Source of the DNA: a virus
Taxonomy: Duplodnaviria; Heunggongvirae; Uroviricota; Caudoviricetes
IMG/VR virus record: IMGVR_UViG_2534681835_000030
Length of the DNA: 4,533 nucleotides
Direction: 5' to 3' (one strand)
Shown here: positions 348 through 3,228 of the stretch, piece by piece
How positions within the stretch are numbered: position 1 is the stretch's first letter
Layout of the letters: each line of letters opens with the position of its first letter
The notes under the pieces: model-generated
Database searches by the model: none
Seen by the model: only the letters and a program-made list of their open reading frames with translations
What the model was told of the DNA's origin: nothing
Position numbers and translations under genes: made by a program

Positions 348-3182
348 GTGAGTTTGCATGGAGCTGGAATGAACCACGACCAGCCATTGATCCGGCCAGA
401 TTTACGGAGCACAGGCAGGAAACTGAAACCGACCTGCAACGCGCCATCCGTTACTACCTTGAGGCGGACAAAAAGGCCCGGAAAGAACAGGAAGCGAAGG
501 AGGAAGCCTTTTTCGCACAATCCACCGTGGGTAAAAAACTCATGGCATCCCTTGAGGAAGCCGGACAGCGTGAAAAGCTGGCACAAAGCATCATCAGCAA
601 GCGTCAGGCAACAGAACAAGACCCGGTGGCCCGTGCTTTTGCCACACTGAAGGTGCTTCCCGTTTATCTGCGTGAACCTCTGAGCCGCCACCTCTCTTTC
701 CTGCGCAAAAAACAGGAATCCGATCGTCAGAAAGGCAAAAAGAGCTGGCAGGCTGAACGCTACGCGCGCGGAACCCTGCGCAAAATATTCGTACGTCTGG
801 ACCGCACCGACAGCCGTTGGCTGACACCGGGTTATCGGTCCCTTGCCGGACGTGAACGCCTGGACGATTTGCTTTACCTGCCGCAACTCAACAAACACCA
901 GATACAGACGCTGGCCACCATGACGGCGGCGATGTTCAGCAGCACCTTCGAAAAACTCTGCGATGGTTTTGGCGCGACTGATGGCGAGCTGACCATGGAT
1001 GTAACGCTGAAGGCGTATCAGATGCTGGCCCGCATGGCGTTACACTTGCACGCCATGCCTCCGCATTATGACGCACTGACAACAGACAAAGACCGGAGGA
1101 ACGAACCGGACACGGAGCTGCTGCCGGGCGCAATCCTTCGCCTGACCTGTGCGGAATGGTGGAAACGCAAACTGTGGCTGTTACGTTGCGAGTGGCGGGA
1201 AGAACAACTCCGCGCCGCCTGTCTGGTTTCCAGAAAAACATCGCCCTATCTGAGTCAGGACGCGTTAAGCGAGTTTCGCGCACAGCGCGAGAAAACACGC
1301 GATTTCCTGAAAAGTTTCATGCTGGAAAATGAAGACGGGTTCACGATTGATCTCGAGACGGTGTATTACGCGGGAGTAAGTAACCCGGTTCACCGTAAGG
1401 CAGAAATGATGGCCACCATGAAGGGACTGGAACTTCTGGCCGAAGCCCGTGGCGACAGAGCGGTGTTTCTGACCGTCACCTGCCCGTCAAAATACCACGC
1501 AACAACGGAGAACGGTCATCCGAACCCCAAATGGAACGGGGCCACCATGCGCGACTCCAGCGATTACCTGGTTAACACGTTTTTGCGGCGGTCCGCAAAA
1601 ACTGAACCGCGACGGCCTGCGCTGGTATGGCATCCGCACGGTGGAGCCTCACCATGACGGCACTGTGCACTGGCATATGATGGTCTTTGCACATCCGGAC
1701 GAGATTGAAACCATCGTGTCCCACGTCTGCGATATTGCCATTCAGGAGGACCGCCACGAGCTGGGCAATGATATTACTCCGCGCTTTAAGGCGGAGTATG
1801 TCGACGGCTCAAAAGGCACACCAACCAGCTACATCGCCACCTACATCGGAAAGAACCTGGACAGCCGCGCCGTGGATGGCATCGACCCGAAAACGGGCAA
1901 GCCACGCGTTGACCACGAAACCGGAAAATCAATGGCCGAGAGCGTGGAGCGCGCCATCGGCTGGGCGCGCCTTCACCGGGTCCGTCAGTTCCAGTTCTTT
2001 GGCATCCCCTCCCGTCAGGTGTGGCGTGAACTGCGCCGCCTTGCCAGCCAGATGGCACGCAATCCGGAAGGCCCGCAACAGCTGAAAGATGATGCAATGG
2101 ATGCGGTACTCGCTGCCGCCGATGCCGGGTGTTTTGCCACCTACATTGAAAAACAGGGCGGCGTACTTGTTCCACGCAAAGACTACCTGATTCGCACCGC
2201 CTACGACCTCGCAGATGAGCTGAATGATTACGGCGAACAGAGCGTACAGATTTACGGGATCTGGTCACCACTCATCGGGGAATCCTCCCGTGTGTGCACG
2301 CATCCGGATAACTGGAAACTGGTAAGACGTAAACCGGAAACGGAAGACAGCGCCCGCGAAAATGGTTTTGACCTTCAGGGCGGCCCTGCCGCCCCTTGGA
2401 CTCGTGGCAATAACTGTCCCCGTGTACAGGAAACGGACAACAACGGGGCAGAACAGCCGGAAGAACGGCCAGCACCGTGGCCGCAGCTCCCTGACGGCGT
2501 TGAAGTGAACGAATGGATGCGCTCACTGAAACGGCACGAACGCCGGGCGCTGATGCGTTCGCTTCGTGACAAACAGGCAAAAAACAGCAGTGATGAAATG
2601 CAGAGCTGGACACAGAGCCGCAAACAGCAGCGGCCTTTGCCTGATAACCACGAATTACTCGCTAAAGAATGGCGGGAGTCTGCCGAATCTCTCGGCCTGC
2701 ATATCGGTGAACAGCAGATGCAGCACCTGCTACGGGGCGGCAGCCTGTACGTTGACGGCAGCATCATTGCACCGCAGGGATATGAAATTGTACGCAAACC
2801 GGATACCCGCCCGGACAGCCGAATCACGCAGCTCTGGCAGCACCTGAGCCGTAATCACGGCGTAAGCAGCACGGAGATCCGCCATAACCCGGTCGCCAGC
2901 TATCTGGCACAGCTGGGGGCATCAGACCCCGAAGCCGCCGCACGCCTGGCATCCGCACTTCAGCAGGATCAGAACACCATGAAAACACCCGTTACCGTGC
3001 TTTCTGACATGCTGCGCGCCATCCGCGACGCAGAGCACGCACAGAGAATCAGTGAAACCACTGAACGCGCCAGCCGCAAAGCAGACCTGCTGCGGGGTGG
3101 CCTGACCAGTGGAAACAAAAAACAGACAGAAACGGGACTCACAAATCCCGTAAATGAGCAAAAAACGCGCAGCGATATATGA
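344..3182 (+). CDS. P2 gpA-like rolling-circle (HUH) replication initiator, about 945 aa if read through; interrupted by an apparent +1 frameshift at the A5 run 1597-1601 (possible pseudogene or sequencing error)
   Basis: All three rolling-circle Rep motifs are present in order: motif 1 FLTVTCPSKYH (1466..1498, frame 2), HUH motif HWHMMVF (1668..1688, frame 3) and the two-tyrosine motif YIATYIGK (1830..1853, Tyr codons at 1830 and 1842). The junction KWNGAT...DYLVNTFLRRSAK / LNRDGLRWYGIRTVEPHHDGTVHWH reads continuously if one A is removed from 1597-1601. Track ORFs 317..1657 and 1641..3182 are the two halves. ATG 344 is preferred over GTG 317 because it overlaps the upstream stop and has GGGA at 332-335. 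Stop TGA at 3180-3182. Confidence 0.82.
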
Positions 3183-3228
3183 AGCGCGCACAAAACAGGC
3201 AAAAACGGGATTTCAGAATCCCGTAAAC
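3115..3228 (+). repeat. Two copies of an imperfect direct repeat of about 40 bp, each containing the palindrome ACGGGA-N8-TCCCGT followed by AAA; candidate parC-like centromere / ParR operator
   Basis: Copy 1 core is 3132..3151 (ACGGGA ctcacaaa TCCCGT), inside the last 17 codons of rep. Copy 2 core is 3205..3224 (ACGGGA tttcagaa TCCCGT), in the rep-parM intergenic region. The flanks are also shared (AACAGaCAgAAACGGGA versus AACAGgCAaAAACGGGA; TCCCGTAAA in both). Spacing is 73 bp. The position directly upstream of parM fits where parC lies in known ParMR loci. Confidence 0.35.

Follow-up and report, generated by a model that had tools for sequence, protein, structure and literature searches.

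What do two similar palindromes do just upstream of the partition genes of a P2-like prophage? The question is raised by a 4,533-bp stretch of viral DNA (IMG/VR record IMGVR_UViG_2534681835_000030), here called the window, which is part of a P88-like prophage (genus Xuanwuvirus, family Peduoviridae, P2 family): phage P88 and its relatives match it at 93-97% identity over 85-100% of its length. The window encodes the actin-like ATPase ParM and its partner ParR, and the palindromes (boxes 1 and 2) lie within positions 3115-3228, ahead of parM. ParMRC is the textbook actin-like DNA segregation machine, and we read the two boxes, together with the phased 53-bp spacer between them, as its putative parC, that is, as the ParR-bound centromere/operator of a ParMRC cassette carried as phage cargo. 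On the basis of sequence comparisons, we give this reading a probability of about 0.72. A first-pass annotation of this DNA had proposed a ParR-bound centromere/operator, and the proposal has gained indirect support from the identity of ParM and ParR, from a core shared across lineages, and from the link between that core and one type of ParR.

Two phased palindromes upstream of parM

The pattern ACGGGA-N8-TCCCGTAAA has two exact matches in the window (3132-3154 and 3205-3227). No further copy was found there with up to two mismatches, nor any other copy in the whole 35.8-kb P88 genome with zero or one mismatch, and the pattern had 0 matches in 200 dinucleotide-preserving shuffles. A repeat search returned a unit longer than the palindrome, of 42 nt, with a distal copy (3116-3157, the reference) inside the last gpA codons and a proximal copy (3189-3230) that is 79% identical to it and starts 73 bp further on. 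The distal unit holds box 1 (3132-3151), the palindrome ACGGGAcT-CACA-AATCCCGT, whose core consists of GGG at 3134-3136 and CCC at 3147-3149, separated by 10 nt. The proximal unit holds box 2 (3205-3224), ACGGGATT-TCAG-AATCCCGT, with GGG at 3207-3209 and CCC at 3220-3222. These features were delimited by pattern and repeat searches and are given without strand; the two 20-nt palindromes are 85% complementary to one another. The first-pass annotation had described two elements of about 40 bp, 73 bp apart, each with 6-bp arms and an 8-nt spacer. The coordinates, the spacing, and the arms of box 1 in the window agree with this description, but box 2 has 8-bp arms and a 4-nt spacer. In most relatives, box 1 likewise reads CGGGATT-CACA-AATCCCG.

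One copy was said to lie inside the upstream coding sequence and the other upstream of parM, and this is what the gene boundaries give: box 1 falls within the last 17 codons of gpA (stop codon at 3180-3182) and box 2 within the 76-bp gap ahead of the parM ATG at 3259. The inter-box spacer (3152-3204, no strand) is 53 bp long and includes the gpA stop; its length is kept and its sequence is unrelated across lineages. It also includes a GC-flanked ATATAT element (about 3166-3189), which had been counted as part of the feature. The element is present in the window, but no other stretch is as polymorphic among close relatives, and the Plesiomonas and Hafnia homologues described below lack it; we rejected it as a functional part for these reasons.

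DNA searches with region 3100-3270 matched only P88-like elements, and divergent loci were therefore gathered through ParM homologues. Those at 54-63% identity all came from P2-like prophages, where they occupy the same slot: Plesiomonas (L002), Hafnia (L003), Serratia (L010, L107, and L108), and Enterobacter (L105 and L110). The ParMs of the Plesiomonas and Hafnia phages are 63% and 62% identical to that of the window, respectively. In these two and in the window, the core GGG-N10-CCC occurs twice upstream of parM, in DNA that is otherwise unalignable. Counted from the parM ATG, the cores lie at -125 and -52 in the window, -131 and -59 in Plesiomonas, and -128 and -55 in Hafnia, which gives box-to-box spacings of 73, 72, and 73 bp. 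The boxes thus stand where a parC stands, directly upstream of parM, with parR following parM. GGG and CCC at other spacer lengths (2 to 15) gave no match in the upstream regions of the three lineages. In shuffled 200-bp upstream regions, two cores 70-76 bp apart arose in 2 of 40,000 shuffles for the window and in none of 40,000 each for Plesiomonas and Hafnia. The alignment of related replicons proposed in the first-pass annotation, as a check on whether the arms are conserved while the spacers drift, gives this picture across the three lineages.

Scans of viral contigs with the Plesiomonas and Hafnia ParMs added a single locus, of the Enterobacter type, and most loci from a metagenome scan were of the P88-like or plasmid type, with no further GGG-N10-CCC lineage among the results. 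The only ParM homologue in the phage collection outside the P88 clade was that of phage D6, a P1-like phage-plasmid (MF356679.1, 57140-58090; 47.8% identity), where it is annotated as a StbA-type stability protein.

Linkage of the boxes to parMR and to one type of ParR

The ParR of the window (4222-4533, plus strand) is a 103-residue ribbon-helix-helix centromere-binding protein with the N-terminal strand TRRISFYLKP and the C-terminal tail NIRALFPE. Its domain is PF10784 (Plasmid_stab_B; 9.8e-24) and its profile matches the structure of pB171 ParR/StbB (PDB 2JD3; E = 4.4e-9), and by these two matches it belongs to the R1/pB171 family of ribbon-helix-helix proteins that goes with a type II parC. 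An AlphaFold2 model of the monomer had a mean pLDDT (predicted local distance difference test) of 55.7 and a disordered N terminus; such low confidence is expected of an obligate dimer, and the model was not used as evidence. The parM gene (3259-4217, plus strand) encodes the actin-like partition ATPase, identified on an intact homologue by PF06406 (1.8e-82) and PF21523 (1.3e-68).

We sorted 189 retrieved loci by the N terminus of the protein encoded after parM. The core was present in about 135 of the 138 loci with a TRR(I/V)SFYL ParR (P88 clade, Plesiomonas, and Hafnia) and in none of the about 45 loci with other N termini (NRK..., RRK..., PRK..., and KKIQF...). A parC calls for at least two repeats that covary with the type of ParR, and the locus has two boxes with four half-sites. 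A second, independent case of covariation agrees with this link: ParRs of the NRK type pair with TTTTTCTAT motifs, which are direct iterons on plasmids (L016), whereas Serratia P2-like phages have them as a single inverted pair, perfect over 14 bp.

The Serratia and Enterobacter P2-like loci (L010, L105, L107, L108, and L110) share with the window the cargo slot, the gene order, and a compact inverted-repeat site, but their ParR begins with NRKISFYL and they lack GGG-N10-CCC, having instead a single inverted pair, GAAATAGAAAAATG / CATTTTTCTATTTC, 26-28 bp apart. This repeat of 14-20 bp (L107, 4887-4940; L105, 4883-4950; L110, about 2880-2950) is an alternative compact parC candidate; it is flanked by GCCGTTTAAACGGC-type palindromes, and its core matches the direct iterons of plasmids with an NRK-starting ParR. 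The motif AAAACGGGA, common to this clade and the P88 clade in a MAFFT alignment, was set aside, since the clade has no GGG-N10-CCC and its own repeat is a different inverted pair. Judged by these repeats, we take the Serratia/Enterobacter clade to be a separate specificity group.

ParM is 98-100% identical across well over a hundred contigs. ParR varies more: its alleles within E. coli are 54-98% identical, against about 99% for ParM. The differences cluster in the linker between the ribbon-helix-helix domain and the tail, and the strand, the helices, and the terminal NIRALFPE are retained; the C-terminal pattern N-I-x-x-x-F-P is conserved even in very divergent clades. That the tail is conserved and ParM hardly varies speaks for a retained filament-adaptor function. 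In several P88-like phages and plasmid-borne copies, DNA similarity to the window is lost at 4276, from parR codon 18 onward, just after the N-terminal strand.

The half-sites (AAwCCCr; with CCC on top, AAATCCCGT, AAAACCCGA, GAAACCCAA, and others) resemble the R1 iteron AAACCCA, which repeats at 11-bp phasing in the R1-type plasmid locus, and for this reason we take each palindrome to be a pair of inverted R1-like iteron cores. The R1 ParR has the N terminus KRRTIAFKLNP. R1 parC consists of two sets of five direct 11-bp iterons around a 39-bp promoter segment; ParR binds these promoter-flanking iterons, represses the promoter, and forms the partition complex (PMC2241845). Like parC of R1 and NR1 (type II ParMRC, stbAB), the locus lies directly upstream of parM-parR, has a cognate PF10784 ParR that would be expected to serve as both repressor and filament adaptor, and has two ParR-binding regions, here putative, separated by a nonrepeat spacer. 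Unlike R1 and NR1, it has two single inverted pairs (four cores) 73 bp apart in place of the two sets of five direct iterons, a difference from the ten 11-bp iterons of R1 that had been pointed out from the start. There is no recognizable promoter between the boxes, the distal box lies inside upstream coding sequence, and window-type ParMs are about 46.5% identical to those of the IncF type. Tandem direct iterons phased at 10-11 or 17-20 bp around a core promoter, the design of R1, pSK41, and pCW3, were not found. Plasmid ParMs are at most about 52% identical to that of the window, and the regions upstream of their genes have tandem AT-rich iterons on either side of a strong core promoter. The par1 locus of pB171 is alike in having few ParR sites just upstream of parM, in addition to the match to 2JD3, but its repeats are described as direct, not inverted. 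The plasmid pB171 has a second system (ParABC) that shares the par region.

The boxes could in principle belong to gpA, inside which box 1 lies. The gpA proteins of P88 and the Plesiomonas phage share 56% identity as far as about residue 700 and have unrelated tails beyond it, yet box 1 is found at the end of both tails. The tail that follows the replication origin (window about 2450-3182, residues about 700-946) is lineage specific, with 244 residues in P88 and an unrelated 90 in Plesiomonas. Hafnia gpA is 34% identical to that of P88, and an unrelated 167-residue open reading frame (ORF) lies between gpA and parM and overlaps both boxes. Since the left-hand sequence is unrelated across lineages, the conserved unit runs from just left of box 1 through parR. 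On this evidence the boxes belong to parMR rather than to gpA, and the reading frame on the left simply runs into the unit. A natural variant in the chromosome of E. coli CUVET19-1704 (L192, 4001-4260) has an ead/Ea22-like gene in place of the cargo after the gpA stop; box 1 is kept, box 2 and parMR are lost, and the breakpoint is at about window position 3187, which places a recombination breakpoint inside the spacer.

The boxes are also separate from the replication origin. A homologue of the P2 ori nick region (GCCGCCCCTTGGACTCGTGGCAATAACTG, 2388-2416, plus strand; identical to P2 at 24 of 29 bases by a visual count on the alignment) lies 734 bp upstream of box 1; the P2 record annotates a "nick site at ori" at 29892. 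DNA matches between gpA and other P2-like phages, Klebsiella ones among them, span 2098-2449 and 2376-2437, covering the nick site and not the boxes, and both inter-phage DNA conservation and gpA homology end right after the nick region.

A proposed centromere/operator role and competing explanations

In the mechanism that we propose, each box would consist of two iteron cores in opposite orientations (AAwCCCr when CCC is on the strand being read), with one ParR ribbon-helix-helix dimer contacting each core through its N-terminal beta-ribbon. Two dimers would then sit together on a box, as a dimer of dimers, and about four on the locus as a whole. Ribbon-helix-helix dimers such as Arc, CopG, and omega of pSM19035 bind short subsites cooperatively, inverted ones being allowed; unlike ParR, they are not ParM adaptors, and the likeness here is one of general principle. 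The spacing of 72-73 bp corresponds to about seven helical turns, which would put both boxes on the same face of the DNA. The layout would be a miniature of R1 parC, with two ParR-covered clusters flanking an unbound central segment. Bound ParR would repress parMR transcription through box 2, which lies over a candidate -35, and would also form the adaptor complex whose NIRALFPE tails capture the ends of ParM filaments, moving the DNA that bears the site.

The candidate -35, TTCAGA (3212-3217), is the best one in a weak-consensus scoring and forms the center of box 2. The candidate -10 region, ATTAATCAA (3234-3242, plus strand; ATTAAT at 3234-3239), was deduced from alignment and scoring and is common to the window, Plesiomonas, and Hafnia. 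The best candidate promoter of the window, Salmonella, and Hafnia loci has its -35 inside box 2 and its -10 on the conserved ATTAAT/TATATT. Autorepression is predicted from the overlap of box 2 with this candidate promoter. A central promoter between the boxes, in the style of R1, was considered and discarded, there being no conserved candidate, as was the reading of ATTAATCAA as a site for integration host factor, of which the 3' TTR part is missing, by eye, in all three lineages. The sequence AAGGAA (3246-3251, plus strand) reads as the parM ribosome-binding site and is conserved in the three-lineage alignment.

Several observations weigh against a parC at this place. All characterized ParRs bind direct repeats (PMC9426499). 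The locus has four half-sites, far below the ten iterons that R1 needs for full function. Hafnia boxes have in common with the others only the GGG-N10-CCC core, and the repeat search misses them. Within the P88 clade (67 distinct upstream sequences), about 25% of the box columns are polymorphic versus about 30% of the flanks; on these figures the boxes do not clearly exceed their surroundings in conservation, and we dropped within-clade polymorphism as evidence. In about 30 of about 138 loci, or about a fifth of those in the P88 clade, the right arm of box 2 has C changed to T. A strict scan gave no sigma-70 promoter in 2900-3400, which leaves a weak consensus match as the basis for the operator role; parMR could also be transcribed by read-through from the early operon via gpA. 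We found no published paper on the par locus of P88-like phages. Finally, the element is almost always chromosomal: 1304 of 5426 complete E. coli genomes (about a quarter) carry region 3050-3400, at 1443 places, of which 1441 are chromosomal and 2 are in plasmid records, and an active centromere has no obvious job in a chromosome. Up to three copies occur in one genome, which implies that identical centromere-like sites can coexist when integrated.

This distribution is also an argument for the strongest alternative, in which the boxes are only ParR operators: parMR would be autoregulated, with its centromere function lost or never acquired in an integrating phage, and four half-sites would be too few for a scaffold that caps filaments. 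The two boxes, compared with ten iterons in R1, and the overlap of box 2 with the candidate promoter fit this view, as does the use by pB171 ParR of two repeats upstream of parM. The repeats required are at least two of 11 bp in R1, two of 10 bp upstream of parM in pB171, and 20-bp repeats in pSK41 (PMC9426499). However, the 98-100% identity of ParM and the conserved ParR tail argue for a working ParM-ParR interaction, and the conserved phasing of 72-73 bp exceeds what a simple operator needs. We consider an operator without centromere activity unlikely, though clearly the best placed of the alternatives.

A binder other than ParR, either a phage regulator (C, Cox, an Ogr-type activator, or the gpA tail) or a host factor, is a still less probable explanation. 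Many dimeric regulators typically have sites that are palindromes with GC-rich arms, and box 1 lies inside gpA. Yet the boxes go with parMR and the N-terminal type of ParR and not with the phage genes next to them: the gpA tails have nothing in common or another ORF intervenes, and the core is absent with other types of ParR, including those of the Serratia and Enterobacter P2-like phages. Another binder would have to covary with the type of ParR and travel jointly with parMR. To our knowledge, moreover, the motif is unlike the late-promoter dyad of P2 (TGT-N12-ACA) and the Cox box. We infer from this linkage that ParR is the binder.

The boxes might instead act as RNA hairpins, either as minus-strand terminators that shield gpA from antisense transcription of the late operon or as plus-strand stabilizers of mRNA. 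In the window, both look like terminators on the minus strand, with an 8-bp stem, a 4-nt loop, and a T-rich tail, and fold at about -10 kcal/mol (z of -2.4 to -3.3). This is not conserved in the homologues: three of the four Plesiomonas and Hafnia boxes fold no better than shuffles (4-bp stems, 10-nt loops, z of about -0.4 to -1.7), and none of the four has a U-rich tail. Conservation falls on the GGG and CCC triplets and the distance between them rather than on base pairing. The boxes do not coincide with the end of any minus-strand gene, the plus strand of the window has no U-tract, and an Rfam search gave no match. We regard hairpins as very improbable.

That the boxes are part of the phage replication origin or its control, as the first-pass annotation had alternatively proposed, is scarcely credible, since, although they adjoin and partly overlap the initiator gene and P2-family origins lie within gene A, the nick-site homologue is at 2388-2416, gpA shows DNA-level conservation with other P2-like phages in that stretch and not in the boxes, gpA homology between clades stops right after it, 3115-3228 has no sequence homologous to the P2 nick site, and the natural variant without box 2 and parMR keeps an annotated full-length gpA.

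Genomic context and implications

The gene order in the window is gpA, parM, and parR, and parMR occupies a variable cargo slot between gpA and the portal/terminase genes. gpA (344-3182, plus strand) was first annotated as rep; a role in replication stands, but the gene encodes a P2-type rolling-circle replication endonuclease (PF05840, 5.4e-132 on an intact homologue) and not a plasmid Rep. In the Enterobacter locus L105 (3914-4848), gpA and parM are separated by a small ORF and a methyltransferase-like gene, and parR is followed by a gene for a KAP-family nucleoside triphosphatase; Serratia phages carry a HicAB toxin-antitoxin pair after parR. By its gene content, the gpA-portal slot is a multigene cargo hotspot.

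The window has three single-base deletions relative to the intact relative L001, at about 1579, 1598, and 3618; two are in homopolymer runs (T5 for T6 and A5 for A6) and one is in an A-rich stretch. The first two split gpA into ORFs at 317-1657 and 1641-3182, and the third, in an A-run, splits parM into ORFs at 3259-3735 and 3633-4217. These frameshifts look like sequencing or assembly errors rather than real pseudogenes.

The window also matches a 34.5-kb circular record with integrase, Cox, gpA, terminase, capsid, and tail genes. L001 (NZ_CP148288.1) is a complete P88-like phage genome with an integrase that was deposited as a 34,461-bp circular "plasmid"; it may represent a phage circle after excision or a true episomal form. 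parMR of the enterobacterial type was also seen in two assemblies labeled Firmicutes, a contig of Vagococcus sp. WN89Y (L008), whose ParM is 98% identical to the E. coli phage copy, and a contig of a Lachnospiraceae metagenome-assembled genome (L022); both are probably contamination or misbinning.

What is most likely new here, as far as sequence comparison can tell, is a parC-like site built from inverted R1-like pairs instead of arrays of direct iterons, ParMRC itself being already known. It is possible, though we hold it to be doubtful, that P2-family phages have domesticated a functional miniature ParMRC in which two inverted iteron pairs serve to segregate or position the excised or replicating circle. 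If so, these phages would have a transient plasmid-like or carrier state, or an ordered distribution of replicating genomes before packaging, and ParR binding to inverted repeats in a four-site centromere would suffice for actin-like movement of DNA. A natural cassette with two inverted pairs would then define a minimal centromere. The orientation and number of iterons would be flexible, which would aid the prediction of parC sites and of partition-based incompatibility from sequence, and the boxes would give a mutational handle on the partition system of an integrating, rolling-circle prophage of the P2 family.

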